Shown piece by piece: positions 11,261 through 55,688 of a stretch of 64,000 nt of DNA (its first letter is position 1; each line of letters begins with the position of its first letter). The position numbers and the translations under genes are program-made. The stretch comes from Candidatus Marinacidobacterium sp. (GTDB taxonomy: Bacteria; Acidobacteriota; Vicinamibacteria; Marinacidobacterales; Marinacidobacteraceae), in contig OZ242011.1 in NCBI GenBank assembly GCA_965204755.1, positions 1,504,001-1,568,000 of the forward strand, written 5' to 3'. The notes beneath the pieces were generated by a model, which was given only the letters and a program-made list of their open reading frames with translations, did no database searches and was not told the origin of the DNA.

Positions 11261-12019
11261 TTGCCGGCAGCGTCGCCGACCGACCGCCGGACGCTGGTTC
11301 TGCTCCGCCACGGCGAAAGCGTCTGGAACCGGGAGAACCGGTTCACCGGCTGGACCGATGTCCCGCTCGCCGACACCGGCCGGGAGCAGGCCCGCCGCGC
11401 CGGCGACCTGCTGGTCGAGGCGGGGATCGTCCCGGCCACCGCCCACACCTCGCGCCTCCGCCGGGCGGAGGACACCCTGAGCGAGGTGATGGCCCGGGCC
11501 CGGTGGGAGGCGGTCCCCGTCCGCCGGGCCTGGGAACTCAACGAGCGCCACTACGGCGTCCTCCAGGGCGAGGACAAGGCGGAGACAGAGCGCCGCTACG
11601 GCCGGGAGCAGACGAGGCGCTGGCGCCGGAGTTACGCCGACGGCCCTCCCCCGGTGGACCGCGCCGACCCCCGCCACCCGGCGCAGGATCCGCGGTACCG
11701 AGAAGTCCCGCCGGAGGCCCTCCCGGCCGGCGAGTCCCTGCGGGACACCGCGGAGCGCGTCCTCCCCTACTGGGAGCGGGCGATCCTCCCCGACCTCGAC
11801 CTCGGCCCGGTGCTGGTCGCCGCCCACGGCAACAGCCTCCGGGCGCTGGTGATGCGCCTCGAAGCCCTGTCCCCGGAGGAGATCGAACACCGCAACATCC
11901 CCACCGGGATCCCCTTGGTCCTGACGCTGGACGGGGCCTCTCGCGCGGTCGAGCGCCGCTACCTGGCCTCCGAGGCCGAACTCGACCGGGGCATCACCTT
12001 GGCGGCGCATCGCCCGTAG
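11261..12019 (+). CDS. gpmA: 2,3-bisphosphoglycerate-dependent phosphoglycerate mutase (start TTG 11261 or CTG 11249)
   Basis: LLRHGES.WN..NRFTGW, LNERHYG, AHGNSLR, NIPTG motifs. Confidence 0.93.
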   Translation: MPAASPTDRRTLVLLRHGESVWNRENRFTGWTDVPLADTGREQARRAGDLLVEAGIVPATAHTSRLRRAEDTLSEVMARARWEAVPVRRAWELNERHYGVLQGEDKAETERRYGREQTRRWRRSYADGPPPVDRADPRHPAQDPRYREVPPEALPAGESLRDTAERVLPYWERAILPDLDLGPVLVAAHGNSLRALVMRLEALSPEEIEHRNIPTGIPLVLTLDGASRAVERRYLASEAELDRGITLAAHRP

Positions 12020-12080
12020 AATTGCGTCCGTTCCGAGCGAGGGCGCCGCGCGGCCCCGTTTCCGGAACAGCCCCTCCGAC

Positions 12081-13990
12081 ATGAAGAAGAACCGCTCGAA
12101 CCGGCAGTGGCGGTGGGAAACCGTCGACCCGAATGTGGGCGCTGCCGGCGGCGCCTTCGCGAAGGTGTTTCGCAACCTGGAGGAGAAGAAGCCCGGCTTT
12201 CTGGAGGAAGGCGCTCCGGGGTTGAACGCTTACCTGATGGCTCGAGAGGTCATCCAGAACGCATGGGACGCCGCCCTCGAGTTGCGGAAACCTGCCCCCC
12301 CCCCCCCCCCGCAAAAAGTCTTCCAGATTTCTACATCCAGTTCGACTTTCGTGTGCTGAGCGGTTCGGAAAAGAAGTCGCTCATCGCCACACTGGACTTG
12401 GGCGGGCATGTCGAGCGGCTTTCGCAACTCGAACGACAGACGATCGGTCTCGATGACGATCTCTGTCTGGATCATCTCGAGAGCAACGAACCGCTCCCGG
12501 TTCTCGTCATCGAGGAGACGGCAACGACCGGGATGTTCGGGCCGTGGAAGGGCGCCAAGTCGAAACTCTTCAAGGCTCTCGCCGCCCTCGGCATCCAAGG
12601 CAAGGACGATGCGGATGCCGGGGGTGCCTTCGGTTTCGGCAAGGCGGGCCTGATTCGCGGTTCGGCCCCGCGGATCGTGGTGGCCTACACCTGCTTCCGG
12701 GAACAGATGGACGATCCAGGAGTTACCCGTCGCCTCTTGGGAATCACCTATTGGGACGCACATTCACTGGACGACCGAGACTTCACCGGAATGGCGCGTT
12801 GGGACACGAACTCCGATGAGCCGCGACCGTTCGAGAACGACGAGGCGGACGGTATCGCCGAGGAACTGGGGCTGAGGCTTCGCCACCCGGACAACGACGA
12901 GGACTTCGGCACTTCGTTCTTGATCCTGCAACCCACCGTCGATCCGGGGAGGCTGGAGACCGCGATCAACCGCTCTTGGTGGCCGGCGCTGGAAGACACG
13001 ACGCTCGGCTTCCAGGCAGCGATCCGGCCGCCCGGCGAAGACGCGCGTTCTCCGCGACCGCAACAGGACGCCGACCTGCAGCCCTTCGTCCGTGCTTATC
13101 GGCAGGCGACCTCCACCGCAAAGTTCATCGGCAAAGTTCCCAACCTCCACTCTTTTGATATCTGGGACTCGTCCCGACTACTGGGAAAACTCGTACTGGT
13201 CACCGACCCGGACGGTTGGTCGTTCCAGGACCCGAGTTCGTCATCGGATGAGAGTCTCGTCGCGCTGATGCGCAACACGCGGATGGTCGTGGAATATCGA
13301 AAGTTGGGGTTCCGGGAGACCACTCCGATCGTTCGCGGCGTCTTCGTGGCGGACGACGGCGTGAGCGGTCTTCTCCGGGAAACGGAACCCGTCGGGCACG
13401 ATGCTTGGTATTCGGGTGGTGACGAGAACGATGCCAGCGAAGAGGCTCGTGCTGTCGCAGACTGCATCCTGAAGAAAATCAAGGATCGCGTTCGCAAGGT
13501 TCGCAAGGACTTGGCGCCGCCCGCACCGAAACCGGAGTTCGTGAGGCTCCCGGAGTTCGACCGCATCATGCGGCGCATCTTGGGCGGCGAGGGCCGAAAA
13601 CAGGGGCCGACCGCGCAGAGGCGTTTCGTACGGTTGGATGGAATCGAGAGCGAGCCCGAGATCGTTGGCCACGGGCTCATCCGTACCACCGGGTCCGCGC
13701 AGTTCGGTCTGAGCGAAAATTTTCCGGTGTCCCGCCCCGGCGCACGCGTTGCCATCCAAGTCCGTTTCGTGGTACTCGAGGACGGTCAGGCCCGCGGCGC
13801 CAATAGCGTCCCGGTCGCAGTCGCGCCTCCCGATGGCTTCGAAGTCGCCGACGACGCCGATCCCCACCGCTTCACGGGCTGGTTGGCTCGCGGCGACGAA
13901 CACGGCTTCTCCTTCCAAACGGATCCTTACGACGAGGATTGGACCGGTCGGCTCTACATCGAGGCCGAATTCCTTTCCGAGGACTCTTGA
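12081..13990 (+). CDS. GHKL (MORC/MutL-like) ATPase, frameshifted at a poly-C tract (phase-variable, pseudogene or sequencing error)
   Basis: Motif I REVIQNAWDA in ORF 12081-12359; motifs IEETATTGM, GGAFGFGKAG and GTSF in the frame ending at 13990; frames switch at C16. Confidence 0.75.
12295..12310 (+). repeat. C16 homopolymer
   Basis: Counted directly; C14 or C17 would restore the frame. Confidence 0.9.
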
Positions 13991-14976
13991 ATCGAGAACG
14001 CAAGACCGTACGCCCGTTTCGGGGCGTAGCGCCGTCGCTGACCAGAGCCCTGCGGAATGCGGTTCTTCGGTTCGGAGAGAAACAGGTCACCGCGGGCGCT
14101 CGCCTCCAGTGGGACGACTTCGAGACCTACCGAGACCAAGACATTTTGCTGGAGTGGAGCGCGGACGACGAGTCTCCGACCTTCTTGTCCGGGCTGAAAC
14201 AAGGCTGCCGCGAGTCCGGTCTGCCTCCCGACAGTCTGGCTCTCGTCGTCACGGCCACCAGCCGGTATCTCGGTATCGTGGATGTCCTCTTCAACTGTCC
14301 TCTGGACGACTTGGATGAACTCGAACCTGCCCTTGACCTTCGGGCCGAGAAAACCGACGCGGCGGCTTGGAGGACATGTGTCCGAGGTTGCCGGGTGGAC
14401 GCGTATCTCCTGCTCGCCCGCAAACTGGAAGAACGGCCTCTTCGCCCCTGGAGGAAGGGAGTGTGGCTGTCGAGGGCGAGTTTCACGGTAGCGACAGACT
14501 ACACGGAGAGTCTGTTTCGACCGAGGAAACTGGACGACAAACAGCGGAAGCGATTTCAACTCTCGGTTCAGGCGCTCCGCTATGTCCATCTTCCGGAACC
14601 CGTCTGGGAGGAATATGACCCCGAAGAGCCGCCGGAGGTGTACTTGGACGCCGAGATCATGGCGCAGATCGCGGCGAAGCCGAAAGCGCTGCCGAGCCGC
14701 CTGGCCCAAGCGGAACTCGCCTATGTGTTCCTGCGTGGCGTCCTCACCGATGCTCACATGAACCGAAAGCAGTGGCGCGGGCGCATGTGGCGGGACATCG
14801 CGAACACACTGCTCGGCAAGGCCCTTCGCGCCATCGCCGGGAAGAACGCGCCCGTCGCCGAGTGCGCTCGATGGATGGACAGACTCGGCAGTGACGGTGG
14901 CTTGGAGGGTGTCGTGTCGGAGTGCGAGGGCGTCACCGAAATTCGCGCTCTTCTTCGCGACGCGTTTCGGGAGTAG
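13987..14976 (+). CDS. Hypothetical protein, second gene of the GHKL-Dcm cassette
   Basis: TTG overlaps the ATPase TGA (TTGA coupling); 329 aa globular-looking sequence; no motif recognised. Confidence 0.7.
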   Translation: MNRERKTVRPFRGVAPSLTRALRNAVLRFGEKQVTAGARLQWDDFETYRDQDILLEWSADDESPTFLSGLKQGCRESGLPPDSLALVVTATSRYLGIVDVLFNCPLDDLDELEPALDLRAEKTDAAAWRTCVRGCRVDAYLLLARKLEERPLRPWRKGVWLSRASFTVATDYTESLFRPRKLDDKQRKRFQLSVQALRYVHLPEPVWEEYDPEEPPEVYLDAEIMAQIAAKPKALPSRLAQAELAYVFLRGVLTDAHMNRKQWRGRMWRDIANTLLGKALRAIAGKNAPVAECARWMDRLGSDGGLEGVVSECEGVTEIRALLRDAFRE

Positions 14977-14981
14977 CCACG

Positions 14982-15704
14982 ATGCGATACAAGACACTCC
15001 CGCTCCAGGAGTGTCGGCGTTTCGCCCGCGAGCGACTCGCGGGAGAGACGCCGGACATCGGTACGGGCGTTGTCTTCGCCGGAGCCGGCGAAGACCTCGA
15101 CATAAAGCCGATCCGCAAGGCCGCCAAGAAGATCGTCCGTCTCGTCGACGACAAGGCGAAGGATCGGGATCGAATCGAGGGGAAGGCCGCTGTTCTCCTC
15201 TACGACGGCCTTGCCGGAGTCCCGGTCGACGCACTCGACGATCCGGGTTTCTGGCGCTACCTGAGTGTCGGATTGGCGTTTTGGGGCTTCATCGCCTGGA
15301 GGGAGCACCGCGCACTGCAGAAGGGCGACAACTTCCTCAAGTATGTCGACGGGAAGAAGGCGACCGAGTGTGTCCTTCCGCGCATGTACATGCGCGTGTT
15401 GGCGCTCGGCGCCCGGGACGACCCGAAGGGACAGTTCCGGGAACTGGCTACGGCGCTTCCGGCCGCGACGGACTTCTGGCGGAGTCATGTGGTCCGGGTG
15501 CAGACCGCGGCGTCGCCGGCCGTCGTTCGGGCGTTCGCGCGAATGCAAAAAGAGAGGCGTCTCAACACCGACGATCTCCGGGAGTTCGCGAAGGACATTT
15601 CCAAGATCCGTTCGACGGTCGTTTTGAGCATCTACAACGACGAGGAAGCCGACATCTTCATCCGAGACCTTCGCGCGAAGTTCGACCGCCGGAAGGCCGG
15701 ATAG
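14982..15704 (+). CDS. Hypothetical protein (weakly DUF6339-like), third gene of the cassette
   Basis: ATG 5 nt after the previous stop, preceded by GGAG; DDPGFWRYLS motif. Confidence 0.65.
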   Translation: MRYKTLPLQECRRFARERLAGETPDIGTGVVFAGAGEDLDIKPIRKAAKKIVRLVDDKAKDRDRIEGKAAVLLYDGLAGVPVDALDDPGFWRYLSVGLAFWGFIAWREHRALQKGDNFLKYVDGKKATECVLPRMYMRVLALGARDDPKGQFRELATALPAATDFWRSHVVRVQTAASPAVVRAFARMQKERRLNTDDLREFAKDISKIRSTVVLSIYNDEEADIFIRDLRAKFDRRKAG

Positions 15705-17071
15705 TGAGTCTTGCCGGCGCCGCCCGGCAGTCCCGTGTGGTTGCCGCGAAGGGAACGCTTCGGGAGGATTATCGGCACAACGGGAGTGTCCGGCACTCGC
15801 TCGCGCTCGGCGCGCGACGGGGCCTGAGCGCCGATCTGGGAGAGCCGGAGAGCGCCCCTCGCTGCAGCGGCGATCCCAAGGGCGAGTGGTGGCGCGCCTA
15901 TCTCCGCGGCCGCCGACCGGTCACAGCGAACCCGAGCGGGAAGACCCTGCGCATCGCCGACCTGTTCTGCGGGGCCGGGGGACTCGCGCTCGGGGTTCGC
16001 CAGTTGTGCGACGAAGCCGGTCTCGAGCCGGTCTGGGAGTTCATCGCCGACCGAGACGACGGCGCGGTGGCGGTGTACGCGGGGAACCACCCGGTGCGGC
16101 GGGTCTCGAGGGAATCGGTGTCCGACCTGCTGGACTACCGGGTGCGGCGGCGGTCGAGCGGGGCCGAGTTCGTCTATGAATCGGAGTTCCTCGACCCCGA
16201 GTTGCGCAAGGCGGTGCGCGGCGTGGACCTGGTGATGGCCGGGCCGCCGTGCGAGGGGCATTCGAACCTGAACAACCACACGCGCCGGGACGACCGGCGG
16301 AACCACCTCTATCTCGCGGTTCCGGCGTTCGCGGTCGCTGCGGGGGCGCGGATGGTGCTCATCGAGAATGTGCCCGCGGTGGAGAACGACCGCAGCGGAG
16401 TGGTCGAGGCGGCGCGTAACCTGTTGGAGGCTGCCGGTTATTCCGTCGAAACCGGCGTCCTCGCCGCCGACGCCATGGGATGGCCGCAGACGCGGCGGCG
16501 GTTCTTCCTGGTGGCTCACCGTTCCCGCGCGCCAGTGCCGTTCGCGGCGATCCGTGAGGGTCTCGCCGACGATGCTCCGCGCCCGCTCTGGTGGGCCATC
16601 GAGGACCTGGAGGAGACCGGCGGCGACGATCCGCTGCATCGCGTGGGGGAACTCAGCGAGGAGAACCGCGCTCGTATCGCGTGGCTGTTCGACAACGACG
16701 CTCACGAACTCGACCTCTCCGAACGGCCGGCCTGCCACCGGGACGGCACGACCTACTCGGCGGTGTACGGGCGTATGCACCGGGACCAGCCCGCGCCGAC
16801 GATCACGACCGGTTTCCTGACACCGGGCCGCGGCCGGTTCGTGCATCCGACCCGGCGACGGACGCTGACCCCGCGCGAAGCGGCCCGGCTGCAGGGTTTT
16901 CCCGACACCTACCGGTTCGCTCCGGAGGCCGACCGAGTCCCCACCCGGTCGCAACTCGCGAAGTGGATCGGGGACGCGGTGCCCATGCCGCTCGGCTACG
17001 CCGCGGCGCTCTCCCTGCTCGCCCCCGAGTTGGGCCGGGCGAGCCCGCGACGGAAACCGCAGCACGCGTGA
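15704..17071 (+). CDS. dcm: DNA (cytosine-5)-methyltransferase
   Basis: DLFCGAGG (I), GPPCEGHS (IV), IENV (VI), QTRRR (VIII), RTLTPREAARLQGFP (IX), IGDAVP (X); GTG overlaps the previous TAG. Confidence 0.92.
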   Translation: MSLAGAARQSRVVAAKGTLREDYRHNGSVRHSLALGARRGLSADLGEPESAPRCSGDPKGEWWRAYLRGRRPVTANPSGKTLRIADLFCGAGGLALGVRQLCDEAGLEPVWEFIADRDDGAVAVYAGNHPVRRVSRESVSDLLDYRVRRRSSGAEFVYESEFLDPELRKAVRGVDLVMAGPPCEGHSNLNNHTRRDDRRNHLYLAVPAFAVAAGARMVLIENVPAVENDRSGVVEAARNLLEAAGYSVETGVLAADAMGWPQTRRRFFLVAHRSRAPVPFAAIREGLADDAPRPLWWAIEDLEETGGDDPLHRVGELSEENRARIAWLFDNDAHELDLSERPACHRDGTTYSAVYGRMHRDQPAPTITTGFLTPGRGRFVHPTRRRTLTPREAARLQGFPDTYRFAPEADRVPTRSQLAKWIGDAVPMPLGYAAALSLLAPELGRASPRRKPQHA

Positions 17072-17510
17072 CCGGCGCCGGCGCCGGGCCGGCGCGGGAG
17101 GAGTCGGTCCCGGAGTCCGTTCGGCGGCGGATGCGGAATACGCCGCGGCGGGATACGCCGTTCGAGGTCGCGGTGCGGAAGCAGGCGTACGCGTTGGGCC
17201 TGCGCTATCGCGTGGACTGCGGCGTTCCCGGAGTGACCCGGGGACGGCCCGACCTGGTATTCAGCGGACGCCGGGTGGCCGTGTTCCTCGACGGCTGCTC
17301 TGGCACTCCTGCCCGATCCACCGCTCGGCCCCGGCCACGAACCGCGAGTGGTGGGCCGCCAAACTGCGGGCGAACGCCGACCGCGACGAACGCCACCGCC
17401 GGGAACTCGAGGACGCCGGATGGACCGTCCTCCGCTTCTGGGAACACGAAGATCCCGCAACCGTCGCCGCCGAAATCGCCGCCGCGGTTCGCGGGTCCCA
17501 ACCGGGCTGA
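17068..17510 (+). pseudogene. vsr: Very-short-patch repair endonuclease Vsr, 1-nt deletion frameshift near 17299
   Basis: RRM...RRDTPFE..GLRYR..GRPDLVF..AVFLDGC, then WHSCP..WWAAKL..N..RD..GWTVLRFWEHE in another frame (tgc t_c tgg instead of tgc ttc tgg). Confidence 0.85.
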
Positions 17511-17540
17511 CGGGCCGCAACCGGCCCCGCATGAGTTACT

Positions 17541-17599
17541 GACCCGGCGGGCGCCGGGTCGAGGGCGCGCCCCGGGGCCGGGGAGACCCCGGGGCGCGC
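17541..17599. terminator. Two GC-rich hairpins between convergent vsr and flotillin genes
   Basis: GACCCGGCG/CGCCGGGTC (17541-17560) and GCGCGCCCCGGGG/CCCCGGGGCGCGC (17565-17599); no clear U-tract. Confidence 0.45.
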
Positions 17600-48640: not shown

Positions 48641-50381
<1,741 letters not shown>

Positions 50382-50385
<4 letters not shown>

Positions 50386-52913
50386 TCCTCAAGGAGTACC
50401 AGCGAAGGGCGCTGGAGCGGGTGAGGATGTATCTTCGCCTGCTCGCCGAATGGCGCGACAAGGCAGGGGGCCTCGATCCCGCGCTCGGTGTGGACTGGGC
50501 CGAACGGGCTTGGGAGGCCGCGGCGACGCGCCGCGCCTACTTCAAGAGAACGAACGGGCTCGACCAGCCGTTGCCGGTCTTCTGCCTCAAGATCCCCACG
50601 GGGGGCGGCAAGACGCTGCTGGCGACGAAAATCATCGATCTCGTCAATGTGCACTTCCGTTATCGCCAGAGCGGGCTGGTGCTTTGGGTAGTTCCGACCA
50701 AACAGATCTACGACCAGACCCTTCGCGCCCTGCGAGATCGGGACCACCCCTACCGCCAGCAACTCGACATCGCCTCCGCCGGGCGCACCGTAGTATTGGA
50801 GAAGAACAGCGGGTTCGGCCCGTCGCAGGTCGCGGAAAACCTCTGCATCCTGCTCCTCATGCTGCCCTCGGCCAACCGCGAGACCAAGGAGCAGTTGCGG
50901 ATGTTCCGGGACAGCGGCGGCTTTGCGAGTTTCTTTCCGGGCGACGACGACTTCGACGGGCACAAGGGCTTGCGGAAGAGGATCCCGAATCTGGACACTT
51001 TCGAGAAGGAGGGCGCTTACGGGAGGCACCAGATCAAGACCTCGCTCGGCAACACGCTGCGTCTGCTGGAGCCGCTGATCGTTCTCGACGAGGGGCATAA
51101 GGCCTACGGCTCGCTGGCCCGGGAGACCCTCGAAGGATTCAATCCCCACATGATCGTGGAATTGTCGGCGACGCCGACCAAGGAAGCGAATGTCCTCGTG
51201 GAAGTGTCGGGACAGGCGCTGAACGCGGAAGAGATGATCAAACTGGATCTCCATATCCAGAACAAGTCGAGCGTCAGTTGGCAGGACACGATGCTCGCCG
51301 CCGTCGAGCACCGACAACGCTTGGAGGAACGGGCGCTGGCGCACGAGGGCGAGACGGGGACCTACATCCGACCGATCTGCGTGGTGCAGGTGGAACGGAC
51401 CGGAAAGGAGCAGAGAAAGGCCGGCTTCATCCACGCGGAGGATGTGCGCGACTACCTTCTCCGCCATCCCGCAATCACGGCCGAACAGGTGGCGGTCAAG
51501 ACCAGCGCGCGCGACGAGTTGAAGGAGGTGGACGAGGTCGGCGGCCTGTTGTCGCGCGACTGCCCGATCCGCTTCATCATCACCAAGCAGGCGCTGCAGG
51601 AGGGCTGGGACTGCGCGTTCGCCTATGTCCTGGCGATCCTGACGAGCCCGAGTTCCAAAAGCGCCCTGACGCAGTTGGTGGGGCGCATCCTGCGTCAACC
51701 GTACGCCCGGAAGACGCAAGTCCCGGCCCTCGACGAGAGTTATGTCTTCTGCTTCCAACGAAACGCCAGGGACCTCCTCGATCAGGTGCGCAGAGGGTTC
51801 GGCCAAGAGGGCCTTGAGGACCTGACATCCCGCGTCCGGACGGACGACGGGGATGCGCCGCGGCCCGGAGAGACCATCACCGCCAGCCAGAGAGGCCGCT
51901 TCCGTCGGACCACCAAGGAGTTCGTCCTCCCGACCTTCGTGATTCACGAGGACGGACGATGGCGGCCCGTTCATCACGAAGTCCATCTTCTGTCCCGCGT
52001 CCGGTGGAACGAAGTGGATCTGACTCCGCTCTTCGACTTGGAACTCGGCCAAGCGGGTGGCGATCAAGTCCTTCGCGCCGGCTTGGACGGCGAGCGCTTC
52101 AATGCGGCTCCGCTCGCGGCGCCGGCGATGTCGGGAGATGCGGAAGACGGCGTGGTGGACTACTACTTCGCGGCCAACCACCTGAACGAAGTGATGCCGA
52201 ACCCGTGGAGAGCCGCCGAAGCGGCGCGGCGAGTGTTCGAGACACTGATGTCGAAGCGACCGAAGGAACTCGTCGCCGCCAACGCCCTGTTCGTCCTCGA
52301 GGAGTTGCGCAAGCACCTGGCCCTCGAACGCGACCGGCTCTCCCGGAAGGTCTTCTCCGAACTCCTCGATTCGGGAACGATGCGGTTCCTGGTCATCGCG
52401 AAGGACTTCGGCTTCAACCGGCTCCCGCTGACGATCGACTATCCCGTGAAGGAGCGCCAGGCCAACCGCGACGATGGAAGCCAGTTCCAACGCAACCTCT
52501 TCGACCGTACGAACGAGACCGACCTGAACGGCCTCGAACAGAAAGTCGCCGCCTATCTCGACGGGCAGGAACGGCTGTTCTTCTGGTACCGCAATCGATC
52601 TCGCAAGGACTTCTTCGTCCAAGGCTGGAGACCGCACCGGATCTACGCCGACTTCATCCTTACGCTCGAAGCCGACGAACCGGACGCCGACGACGAATTC
52701 CACCGCGTCTTCGTCGTAGAGACGAAGGGGGTCCACCTGAAGGATTCGGAGGACACCGCCTACAAGCGGTCGGTCTTCGACCTCTGCTCCCGCCACGCCC
52801 GGAAAGCCGACTGGGCGGACTTCGTGCCCGCCATGCGCGACAAGGTGATGCGCTTCGAAGTCGTGGACGAAGACCAGTGGGAGAGACACTTGAACACGCT
52901 CTTTCGAGCATGA
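50382..52913 (+). CDS. res: Type III R-M restriction subunit (SF2 helicase plus PD-(D/E)xK nuclease)
   Basis: TGGGKT, DEGH, SAT, EGWD, QLVGRILR; YADF...VETKG; ATGA overlap with mod. Confidence 0.9.
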
Positions 52914-53089
52914 AGAGGCACTCGCCGAACACCGCCAGACAAGCCTGAGGAGCCAACCCTGAGGCCGGTCGCCGAGGGTTCCCGGATGACTTCGCTCCCG
53001 TTGGCAACTTCAACGCGGAGGCGCTGAGTTCGACTCGGGCCCGCCGTCCGCGTAGCGTCCCGGACTCCGTGCGGCCCAGGTCGAAACAC

Positions 53090-54607
53090 TCAGTCCCCGT
53101 GTTCTTCATTCAGGGCCACGAGTGCTTTCCGCAGTTCTACCATGGCGGTGGTGTCGCGCTCGCAGTAACGGCGCAGCGCCTCGAAGTCTCGGTGGCGCGA
53201 ATTCTCGTCCCTGTTTTCTATGGCGCGTTCATAGTACGCCGAGGCCATGAGGCCGTCCGAGACCTCAAGATCGTCGTAACCCAGACCGGAAACCAGGGCG
53301 GGGAAGACTCGCTTGATCGAGAACGAGCCCCGGAACTCAGGGTCGTAGAGCGTCTTCTTGACGACTTGAAGCAGGTCCAGGAGCCGTTCCTGGATACTCA
53401 CCAGCGCCGCCGCATGTTGCGGAGACAACCGCGCCAAGTCGCCAAGGACAGAATTCTCAAAACCGCTGTAGACGCAAATGGTCCCTTCGTCGCCGAGAGC
53501 CGCGATGAGGCGCTCGGTCAACTCCGGCCGTGGGTCACTGTCGTGAGCGTGAATGTGGTCCGAGTGCGAAATGCGCCCGTCGGGGTGTTCGGTATGGACC
53601 GAGAAGAGAAACGGTACGCGAGCGAACGGACGCGTACCGGCAAAGCGAGGCACTGCGGGCGAGAATGTCTCGAAGTCCAAATGACGCACTGGCCACTTAA
53701 CGGCATCCAGTCTGGCCGTCAAGTCTCCGTGGATCTGGATGGACTTCGTTTGCACCGCCGTCCGAACGACCCGTTGGAGCCGCGTCAGCGGAACGGTGCG
53801 CGGGATATCTCGAATCTCCTCGATACCCTGCTTGTCCAACTTCTGCCGCACTGACGAAGTAGATCGGAGATTCGGCAGTTCGCTGATGCCATGTTCCGGT
53901 TGCCGGATATCGTGGGTGCAGTGCCCATAGTACGGACACGGGAAGGGCGTCTTGCAGTGATCGCCAGGTGCGATCCGTGGTTCTTTTTCGCTGGAGAGCA
54001 CGCGCCGCATCGCCAAGACATCCTCGTCCATGCCAGGCAGCATGGCCTCTGCCTTCTCCAGCAGGGTATGGAAGCGAAACATCGTGTCGACATCGAGTTG
54101 GATCCCGTCATAGACATAGTTCCCGTTCAGAAGGAGTACTCCGGCGTCGTGGACACGCAGCCCAGCCCCTCGGACCGCCCATAGTTGAAGGGCCACATCC
54201 AAGACATGGTAGTCCTTGGTGTGGACTCCGGACTTGACCATGACGATGCGCCAACTGCTCTTGTCTACACGCTCAAGGATGTCAACGGTGACCATGACAC
54301 CACCGTGCTCGAAGGTGGCGCCGAAGAGCGCGGGGACTTCGGTTCGGAGAATCCGATCCGTCTCTGCGGTGGCCTCCGCCGAACTGCGGTCGGCTGTGAT
54401 GTTCTGTCCGTGGGGGTGACGGGCGCGAGCGAGTGCGCTTACATGATGAATGGGGTTGAAGATGTGAAGAAAGGACTCATCCGCGTCAGTAGCGCGGTCG
54501 GGCGCGTTGAAGTCCTGCCATAGACGAAGGCGGCACTGCCTTCCGGCCAAGTAGTCGGACCGGCGTAGCGGAGCGGGCGGAGGGTTGTCGGCAGATATCG
54601 TTGTCAT
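53090..54607 (-). CDS. DUF2779 protein (Cas4/RecB-like Fe-S nuclease domain plus RNase H-like domain)
   Basis: QC.LRLW, VDIL...VKS, HCKTPFPCPYYGHC, LDFET, PFLFSVH, SIKRV.P, YCERDT. Confidence 0.82.
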   Translation of the reverse strand: MTTISADNPPPAPLRRSDYLAGRQCRLRLWQDFNAPDRATDADESFLHIFNPIHHVSALARARHPHGQNITADRSSAEATAETDRILRTEVPALFGATFEHGGVMVTVDILERVDKSSWRIVMVKSGVHTKDYHVLDVALQLWAVRGAGLRVHDAGVLLLNGNYVYDGIQLDVDTMFRFHTLLEKAEAMLPGMDEDVLAMRRVLSSEKEPRIAPGDHCKTPFPCPYYGHCTHDIRQPEHGISELPNLRSTSSVRQKLDKQGIEEIRDIPRTVPLTRLQRVVRTAVQTKSIQIHGDLTARLDAVKWPVRHLDFETFSPAVPRFAGTRPFARVPFLFSVHTEHPDGRISHSDHIHAHDSDPRPELTERLIAALGDEGTICVYSGFENSVLGDLARLSPQHAAALVSIQERLLDLLQVVKKTLYDPEFRGSFSIKRVFPALVSGLGYDDLEVSDGLMASAYYERAIENRDENSRHRDFEALRRYCERDTTAMVELRKALVALNEEHGD

Positions 54608-54793
54608 TTGCGGAGGTAGAGAGAAGTGAATCCCGGATGCCGCAAGTGTAATCCGTCGGGAGATCGAGTGGCGACGGACCTCGTTCTGGACGCCCCCTTC
54701 CGTGGACATCTGCCGTAGAGGCTGTTTCGACCGGAGCGGCAGGAATTCGGTGAGAGGTCGCCGGGCCCTCTCATGCGGTAGTGTCCGTTCCTC

Positions 54794-55315
54794 ATGAAGC
54801 GACCGATTCGCCACTGCTACTGGGTCGAGCCCGGGCGGCTGCTCGCCGGGGAGTATCCGCGGGAACTCGACGAGGAGGCGTCGAGGGAGAAGGTTCGCGC
54901 CCTGACCGGGGCGGGGGTCACGCACTTCATCGACCTCACCGAGGAAGGCGAGACCTTCCTGACTCTGTTGGAGCCCTACGCCCACTTGGCGGCGCCGGCG
55001 AAGCACCTGCGGTTCCCGATCCGGGACATGAACACTCCGGCGTCCCGGGAGGTCGCCGAGGCGGCGCTCGACGCGATAGACGAGGCCATCGCCGGCGGCG
55101 GGATCGCGTATGTCCACTGTCTCGGCGGGATCGGCCGCACCGGGACCATCATCGGATGCTGGCTCGTCCGGCGGGGCCTCGGCGGGGAGGAGGCGCTCGT
55201 CCACCTCGCGGGACTCTGGCGGCAGAACCCGAAGTCGAGGATCTGGGCGGACACTCCGCAGACGGAGGAGCAGCGCGACTACATCCGGCGCTGGCGGGAG
55301 AAGCGGGGCCGGTAG
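54794..55315 (+). CDS. Dual-specificity/tyrosine phosphatase
   Basis: LAGEYP, FIDLTE, HCLGGIGRTG (CX5R). Confidence 0.88.
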   Translation: MKRPIRHCYWVEPGRLLAGEYPRELDEEASREKVRALTGAGVTHFIDLTEEGETFLTLLEPYAHLAAPAKHLRFPIRDMNTPASREVAEAALDAIDEAIAGGGIAYVHCLGGIGRTGTIIGCWLVRRGLGGEEALVHLAGLWRQNPKSRIWADTPQTEEQRDYIRRWREKRGR

Positions 55316-55688
55316 TCCCGTCCGGGCACTGCGGGGGCGGACCGGGCCCGGCGCGCTTCCCACCGGGGCGCTCCGGCCCGCAGACCGCCGGACGGCGGCG
55401 GGTTCCGGCCCGCGACCCGGCGCCCGGCGCCGCCATCCGCCGGCCCCGGCCTTCCAACCGCCGGGAGACTCCGCGCCCGCGGCCCGGCGCCCCGGGGGGA
55501 CGGGGAGAGAAGGGGATGACCGATTCTGACGCGGCCTCCGCCTAGGCTTCCTTCCCTCGGGCGCCTCCCCGGATCGGAGCGGCTTCCGGAACAGGAACGA
55601 CCCATGACTCTCGCGGCGGCCCCGAAGGCCCAACCTGCATTGGAGAGCCCCGGCCCCGTTCGGGGGCGAGCCCCGGCGCGGCGGCGCC

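Follow-up and report, generated by a model that had tools for sequence, protein, structure and literature searches.

A 64,000-nucleotide stretch of the genome of Candidatus Marinacidobacterium sp. (GenBank assembly GCA_965204755.1, contig OZ242011.1, positions 1,504,001 to 1,568,000; hereafter the window) contains a five-gene cassette at positions 12081-17510. We read it, with a probability of about 60%, as a member of a widespread, horizontally moving, methylation-linked module of defence type, similar to restriction-modification (R-M) systems, in which the restriction side is phase-variable. The core of the module would consist of gene 1 (a GHKL-like ATPase), gene 2, gene 3 (DUF6339) and a C5 cytosine DNA methyltransferase (dcm), with vsr as an optional add-on. 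Gene 1 carries a hypermutable cytosine tract whose length decides whether the gene is in frame; this slippery run probably switches gene 1 on and off. As the cassette stands in this assembly, gene 1 is out of frame and vsr is broken, and the other three genes are whole.

The window corresponds to C1:1504001-1568000 of our genome G000, which is 72% guanine plus cytosine (G+C). Gene 1 lies on the forward strand at 12081-13990, where the open reading frames (ORFs) and their translation give a protein of ~635 amino acids (aa) in two frames, 12081-12296 and then 12311-13990. Between them is a run of 16 C (12295-12310) that forms a poly-proline loop after Bergerat motif I and shifts the frame; the sequence would be in frame with 17, 14 or 20 C. 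An intact homologue, P0002 (635 aa, 75% identical), reads APPPPPPAKSLPDF over the break position, and its frame is the one that 17 C restores. Judged by this frame, gene 1 is off in the 16-C assembly. The second genome found to carry gene 2 (G005; same family, other genus) has the full set of five genes, none of them broken, in identical order, and its gene 1 orthologue, 54% identical, carries 32 C at this position, which keeps it in frame. Besides the 16-C tract, just one other run in the window reaches 10 bases or more. A preliminary description of this DNA had merely hinted at the two frame breaks of the cassette and had overlooked that the one in gene 1 falls within a conserved hypermutable C run.

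Reference genomes were scanned, one per species, which confirmed 184 relatives of gene 1; 80 loci (1.24 Mb) were kept and surveyed for G or C runs of at least 9 bases. Twenty of the 25 runs lie inside gene 1, which makes up 13.3% of the surveyed DNA (binomial p 8e-14, ignoring kinship), whereas gene 2, gene 3 and dcm are free of them in all 80 loci; one locus (L066) has a further run immediately upstream of the gene 1 start. Within gene 1 the tracts recur at three sites, profile positions ~67-92, 110-130 and 311-328, as either poly-C or poly-G. With the window included, the reading frame is kept in 7 tracts of at least 9 bases and lost in 13, and 2 are unscorable. A quick-method tree built from 59 rows of genes 2 and 3 requires at least 13 changes of tract type, and loci with a tract often have sister loci without one. 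Gene 1 is also interrupted by insertions of ~1-3.5 kb, rather than by frameshifts, in five loci (L012, L044, L057, L064 and L074); these may be mobile elements.

Differences in tract length are also found among samples. The cassette stretch was recovered from 15 public runs belonging to five studies, labelled as sponge or marine metagenomes or with two coded organism names. These data are assembled unitigs, which break at the tract, and positions 11700-13700 of the window were compared with them. In run X10, unitigs that bridge the tract have a depth of 90 for the 16-C form, 44.9 for the form with one more C (17 C, in frame), 12 for a form with CCC added and 27 for a record with two gaps, against flanks of ~275-283. 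The form with CCC added is also present in X12, and a contig of X1 has nine further C before the tract, that is, at least 25 C. In X15, a contig 92% like the window departs from it at 12284 and continues G-rich where the window has its C run; this continuation could be an assembly artefact or a strain with a different tract.

The module extends well beyond the window. ORFs of the kept loci were searched iteratively with gene 2, gene 3, dcm and vsr, and 70 loci have at least 3.3 kb of sequence downstream of gene 1. In 63 of these 70 the order is gene 1, gene 2, gene 3, dcm, and the remaining 7 are partial, with gene 2, gene 3 or dcm missing. Being repeated in 63 of 70 related loci, the arrangement is far beyond chance, and in this respect the comparison agrees with the earlier reading of a methylation-based system: the cassette is a conserved unit tied to a C5 methyltransferase. 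The vsr gene is found in 27 of the 70, either upstream or downstream. The alternative offered in the preliminary description, a reduced derivative of a larger system, is unsupported because the four genes plus optional vsr are the standard form among the related loci. Hosts include Acidimicrobiia (many of them sponge symbionts), Vicinamibacteria, Thermoanaerobaculia, Gemmatimonadota, Chloroflexota and a few Proteobacteria, as well as Mycobacterium fragae and a Bifidobacterium bin. Near the window genome the distribution is patchy: gene 2 is present in 2 of 41 related genomes, the window's own included. Two cassettes stand close together in opposite orientation in the Acidimicrobiia loci L016 and L028 (also L027), and two genomes have two separate loci each (L012 with L042, L034 with L040), so that the system is multi-copy in some sponge-associated lineages.

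The cassette was first described as five co-oriented, tightly coupled genes, mostly richer in A+T than their flanks and placed between gpmA and a flotillin gene, and all of this is seen in the window. Gene 1 and gene 2 overlap by TTGA (13987-13990), a gap of 5 nucleotides (nt; 14977-14981) precedes gene 3, gene 3 and dcm share TAGTG (15702-15706), and dcm and vsr share GTGA (17068-17071). The G+C content is 0.61-0.65 for genes 1-3 and 0.68-0.74 for dcm and vsr, compared to 0.69-0.76 in the flanks. The adjoining genes are His_Phos_1 (gpmA-like) and Band_7/SPFH.

A word-indexed search found 223 relatives of gene 1, mostly of ~635 aa and without names. Bergerat motifs have the forms ExxxNxxD (I), DxGxG (II), GxxGxG (III) and GT (IV). 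In an alignment of 26 gene 1 sequences, E56, N60 and D63 of motif I (REVIQNAWDA) are invariant, as are G184, G185, G188, G190, K191 and G280 at the positions of motifs III and IV; motif II is a variant, ExxxxGMxG, with E149 replacing D, altered spacing and ~90 aa between motifs I and II. The four strings quoted in the preliminary description (REVIQNAWDA, IEETATTG, GGAFGFGK and GTS) are all in the translation and lie on invariant columns. The program hhalign sets motif I in register with ELIANAWDA of HATPase_c_3 proteins from the same genome. When language-model features of residues 1-320 were compared with the Atlas, the best ten named matches all belonged to HATPase_c_3 or its clan (HATPase_c_3/sacsin), with scores up to 0.90, which we treat as a lead only. 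Gene 1 is, on these motifs and likenesses, likely a GHKL (Bergerat-fold) ATPase. All 26 aligned relatives also match the PADLOC model PDC-M33A (PDLC04582) colinearly, the best at E 6.2e-17, and the C-terminal piece of the window gene matches it at 4.4e-6. In the Atlas, the clusters nearest to gene 1 are mostly from Actinomycetota, with proteins of 666-704 aa at scores of 0.90-0.98; some of these clusters have members with HTH_3 or HTH_31, which suggests that a form of the ATPase fused to HTH exists. A search of phage records found none with a gene 1 relative.

Gene 2 (13987-14976, forward strand, 329 aa) has no match in Pfam, NCBIfam, PADLOC or PHROG. Its family is compact: of 1.84 billion representatives, 694 match at E ≤ 0.001, and almost every one has ~330 aa. 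The structure model, with a predicted local distance difference test (pLDDT) score of 91.3, has an N-terminal beta sandwich like those of Ig and FnIII domains and a helical C-terminal domain. Foldseek, which the preliminary description had proposed running on genes 2 and 3, found no significant fold relative for either: for gene 2 nothing reached E ≤ 0.001 (best E 0.035), and for gene 3 there was no clear match in the PDB (best E 0.83). VIA-align returned only generic Ig/FnIII sandwiches for gene 2 (best Z 7.1; Z 6.5 for the Pycsar AGS-C domain).

Gene 3 (14982-15704, forward strand, 240 aa) is related to DUF6339 (PF19866). Among the matches listed, all 120 homologues have a precomputed match to PF19866, and of 67 relatives compared with the PDC-M33C models, 29 match PDLC04584 and 25 match PDLC04586, with a best E of 9.5e-11. 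The structure model is all-alpha (pLDDT 95.2, predicted template modelling score 0.91). Its best VIA-align match was DndI (9jfl_A; Z 7.0, root-mean-square deviation 3.2, 96 residues), and this alignment covers part of its C-terminal HNH domain (residues 239-596), at a distance from N541, the HNH residue. Because the match is below the noise bar for helical proteins, we make no nuclease claim for gene 3. In the profile libraries, genes 1-3 matched no nuclease or helicase family, and the fold searches of genes 2 and 3 gave none either; within this scope the statement that no nuclease or helicase can be recognised among them holds. The system had also been called undescribed. This fits gene 2, which matches nothing, and fits less well the relatives of genes 1 and 3, which match PDC-M33A, PDC-M33C and DUF6339.

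The gene 2 and gene 3 proteins probably bind each other, as judged from a model of their complex. The model scored 0.85 by its own confidence measure, compared to 0.00 for the best control. Among 157 solved complexes 116 attained that mark, and so did 2 of 215 mismatched pairs; these counts apply only roughly here, since our own alignments were used. Separate runs share at least 80% of contacts, with partner pLDDT of at least 84. The predicted interface involves residues 154-160 of gene 2 (the PLRPWRKG motif), which are its most conserved stretch, and the conserved residues 85-88 and 212-218 of gene 3.

The dcm gene (15704-17071, forward strand) is intact at 455 aa and matches PF00145 at 6.7e-38 (profile positions 2-319 of 324) and TIGR00675 at 1.4e-30, above the cut-off; among the PADLOC models it matches DruM (2.8e-84) and MTase_II (5.4e-79). 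FxGxGG, PPC, ENV and QxRxR are visible in its translation, which we take to be the motifs of a C5 methyltransferase. The gene for the very-short-patch repair endonuclease, vsr (17068-17510, forward strand), is frameshifted: the Vsr profile is covered at positions 5-64 in frame 1 (17068-17292) and at 67-119 in frame 0 (17292-17507). Around the break, ~17290-17293, the window reads GACGGCTGCTCTGGCAC where the intact orthologue in G005 encodes DGCFWH, which fits the loss of one base near 17292. As read from its frames, vsr is dead in this assembly.

For 14 loci, every third of the 42 full-length ones, flanking ORFs were compared with defence models at E ≤ 1e-8, and 9 of the 14 (counted without a background rate) have another PADLOC defence match within ~8 kb, including Type III R-M, pAgo, DarT, HmaB and NsnC. 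Together with two plasmid loci, these agree with the idea that the cassette often sits beside defence genes. Upstream of the G005 cassette (L003/L004) are a DUF499 ORF (2e-17), an HmaB/DUF1156-type methylase (1.7e-103) and NsnC (4.1e-100), neighbours which, by their profile matches, form a defence island. Distant relatives of gene 1 (25-27% identity) were found on five plasmids, for which the gene tables are incomplete. In the haloarchaeon Halomicrobium urmianum, Dcm is followed by a 632-aa protein like gene 1, a 345-aa gene and then DUF6339, and genes of the DUF1998 and PLD families adjoin this set; the positional counterpart of gene 3 scores 74.4 bits against PF19866 and is annotated as a DUF6339 family protein. 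On the plasmid of Agrobacterium salinitolerans, a Z1 protein precedes genes of 524 and 298 aa and then DUF6339, with a pair of AAA ATPase and UvrD nearby. The middle genes of both loci have no detectable likeness to gene 2 (probability under 1%). Taken with gene order and candidate-model matches, these neighbours give the family what looks like a defence role, as a prediction.

We propose that Dcm would mark the host's own DNA and that a heterodimer of the gene 2 and gene 3 proteins, with the ATP-driven gene 1 protein, would form the restriction or sensing side directed against unmethylated incoming DNA. Vsr would repair the T:G mismatches that arise from deamination of 5-methylcytosine. The tract would switch only gene 1, the presumed toxic side, and would never affect the protective methylase. 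Repeats occur in gene 1 and never in the methylase, the pattern that R-M logic would predict if gene 1 served a costly or self-toxic activity from which the methylase protects the cell.

A number of results weigh against this reading. None of the 26 gene 1 members matches Pfam at E ≤ 1, GHKL profiles PF13589 and PF02518 included, and the pieces of the window gene have no Pfam match either; a sequence-profile search of the PDB with the gene 1 alignment gave no match at E ≤ 1. With hhalign, the probability was 0.8% against a MutL alignment of eight relatives and 4-5% (up to 5.4%; E 0.007-0.011) against two pairs of HATPase_c_3 proteins. The GHKL assignment made in the preliminary description is thus backed by the motifs and the language-model likeness, and not by the Pfam and profile-profile tests. 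Gene 3 of the window scores 20.0 bits against PF19866, below the cut-off of 23.2, and has no PADLOC model at E ≤ 0.1; none of 68 gene 2 relatives matches the PDC-M33 models. The fold searches with the models of genes 2 and 3 recognised no nuclease, helicase or other effector fold. Five of the 14 sampled loci have no defence neighbour, and the Agrobacterium plasmid trio has no methylase among the genes listed within 7 kb. As to defence activity, PDC-M33 is itself listed as an untested candidate. The binomial p of 8e-14 is overstated, the loci being related and not independent. The in-frame to out-of-frame ratio of 7:13 is that expected of random lengths, and therefore also of homopolymer assembly errors, and slippage in the libraries could mimic the length variants since the data are unitigs and not raw reads.

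Some of these points lead to other explanations of the cassette. If it were an island being lost, the frameshifts in gene 1 and vsr would be inactivating mutations and there would be no regulated switch. Two of five genes are broken, the vsr break site is not a repeat and itself points to some decay, 7 of 70 related loci are remnants without gene 2, gene 3 or dcm, and 20 of 63 loci have a split or partial gene 1 (breaks near the gene start not counted). Decay would nevertheless have spared the full length of gene 2, gene 3 and dcm, and the gene 1 break falls exactly in a tract that the 54%-identical orthologue of G005 has at this position too. In X10, the in-frame 17-C form reaches about half the depth of the 16-C form, and the window's genome has 37 such tracts; we regard loss as unlikely. 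We give the same low weight to the view that the out-of-frame state comes from sequencing or assembly and that the gene is intact, its tract being a mere poly-proline loop. Long homopolymers are the main site of error in sequencing and assembly, 13 of 20 scorable tracts are out of frame, near the two thirds expected of random length error, and X10 may be the source data of the assembly and so not independent. Slippage artefacts, however, mostly yield shorter runs, and the variants listed for X10 are all longer than 16 C, none shorter, with the 16-C form the deepest (90 vs. 44.9, 27 and 12). Other samples have other lengths (three more bases in X12, at least 25 C in X1), and tracts at three sites, of both C and G, are hard to square with the need for a proline loop.

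A third possibility, which we consider less probable again, is a housekeeping role in which a MutL-like ATPase and two helpers support Dcm methylation and Vsr-type T:G repair rather than defence. In its favour, dcm and vsr share an operon, no nuclease besides Vsr was recognised, and joint action of MutL and Vsr is discussed by Iyer et al. 2008. Such a role sits poorly with the presence of vsr in only 27 of 70 loci as opposed to 63 of 70 for genes 1-3 with dcm, and with a patchy, cross-phylum distribution that includes plasmid copies. Defence genes are frequent neighbours, hhalign shows no MutL likeness, and a hypermutable switch in the ATPase would be typical of costly conflict genes. A switchable, methylation-linked defence module is the reading that we prefer over all three.

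Phase-variable R-M is known from the 'phasevarions' of Type III mod and Type I hsd genes, and a poly-G tract is found in pglX of the Pgl system of Streptomyces coelicolor. As in those cases, a simple repeat in a defence gene shifts the frame, tract length differs among strains, and the same genome has other tracts, including one in the Type III mod gene of the window. The tract described here differs in that it lies in an ATPase rather than a methylase and recurs at three sites in several phyla of uncultured environmental or sponge-associated bacteria, and its switching is predicted from sequence. Classical Type II cassettes such as EcoRII also occur with Dcm and Vsr; the methyltransferase in our cassette is likewise translationally coupled to vsr (GTGA overlap), but in place of a Type II endonuclease there are three other conserved genes. 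A comparable system among R-M operons with MORC-type GHKL ATPases is reportedly Mza (Gao et al. 2020).

The link of GHKL ATPases to cytosine methylases and Vsr within R-M operons was described in broad terms by Iyer, Abhiman and Aravind 2008 (PMC2292703). In that paper, a minority of MORC/paraMORC neighbourhoods have methylases but no helicase, a role in ATP-driven DNA looping or clamping is proposed for MORC-type ATPases, and a paper on the functional interaction of MutL with Vsr is cited. Compared to that description, the cassette shares the link of a GHKL-type ATPase to a cytosine methylase and Vsr and differs in having no SF2 (superfamily 2) helicase, Z1 domain or recognisable nuclease, and no HATPase_c_3 or other Pfam match in gene 1; two unrelated partners, gene 2 and the DUF6339 protein, occupy the place of helicase and nuclease. 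PDC-M33 is one of 145 untested 'guilt-by-embedding' candidates (Payne et al., bioRxiv 10.1101/2024.01.29.577857). Both it and the cassette are multi-gene and associated with defence islands, and relatives of gene 1 and gene 3 match its components A and C, respectively. In contrast, gene 2 matches no model, and the matches of the window genes are weak (4.4e-6 for gene 1) or absent (gene 3). Our literature search found no paper naming PDC-M33 or DUF6339 in the main text. Tiamat (bioRxiv 10.64898/2026.09.30.754977) is likewise described as a GHKL-class (GHL) ATPase in anti-phage defence, and as a single protein with its own DNase, unlike the multi-gene, methylase-linked cassette. The association of GHKL ATPase, methylase and Vsr and the distant relative PDC-M33 are therefore known, and the new element is this variant of the cassette, with its repeat in gene 1.

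The gene 1 tract is one of many in its genome. The lengths of its G/C runs are bimodal: G000 has five runs of 9 nt, lengths of 10-13 nt are missing, and 37 runs measure 14-34 nt. Many of the long runs are located close to the 5' end of a long ORF, as in three tandem ORFs of ~1000 aa at 2079661-2085610, and 18 of the 37 ORFs at long runs have no family match. Two DNA methylase genes are adjoined or interrupted by long runs, one of the N6_N4_Mtase type near 2398758 and one of the N6_Mtase/Eco57I type near 2720960, and a DUF4007 gene is split by a 20-G run at C1:2446665-2446684 (L113) into ORFs that match profile positions 1-78 and 74-288. Other genes at long runs encode arylsulfotransferases, PMT_2 glycosyltransferases, GDSL/AlgX-type esterases and a TonB receptor. 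A literature search, narrow in scope, found no paper on such switchable repeats in sponge symbionts.

Elsewhere in the window, a Type III R-M system occupies 48641-52913 on the forward strand, within a stretch of lower G+C at ~49000-55000. Its mod gene (N6_N4_Mtase, 1.4e-26) is broken by a 34-G run at 49961-49994, where the frame changes, and the res gene (ResIII) starts at 50382, downstream of the split mod. Adjoining the system in the same lower-G+C stretch, at 53090-55633 on the reverse strand, is a gene for an 846-aa protein with a C-terminal DUF2779 (6.5e-35).

The wider surroundings of the cassette include PEPCK and glnA in addition to the gpmA-like and Band_7 genes. Homology to a genome of the same genus (G001) stops at 12018 and restarts at 17570, so that the cassette-specific DNA is 12019-17569. 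A simple empty site cannot be demonstrated, since the gpmA-like and Band_7 genes are ~600 kb apart in G001, and a repeat search of the flanks found no direct repeats or att-like sites around the island. A GC-rich palindrome at 17554-17581 (inverted repeat I25, from an inverted-repeat search), between the end of vsr and the convergent Band_7 gene, is likely a terminator shared by the two sides.

A bolder version of this reading, to which we give somewhat less than even odds, is that the cassette would represent a new class of methylation-based immunity with neither a helicase nor a known nuclease. An ATP-driven GHKL-like clamp and a heterodimer of two new folds, the Ig-like and DUF6339 proteins, would read C5 methylation and disable unmarked DNA, and a repeatedly gained switch in the ATPase, part of a set of ~37 switchable genes, would allow bet-hedging across uncultured sponge-associated and environmental bacteria.

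Annotation pipelines will label such tract-split genes as pseudogenes. The cassette is a candidate defence system backed by deep conservation of gene order, defence-island context and modelled binding between two of its proteins. Phase variation has mostly been studied in host-adapted pathogens; the set of 37 long runs found here in a sponge-associated acidobacterium of high G+C content, and the recurrence of tracts in the same putative defence gene across phyla, point to phase variation beyond such pathogens.

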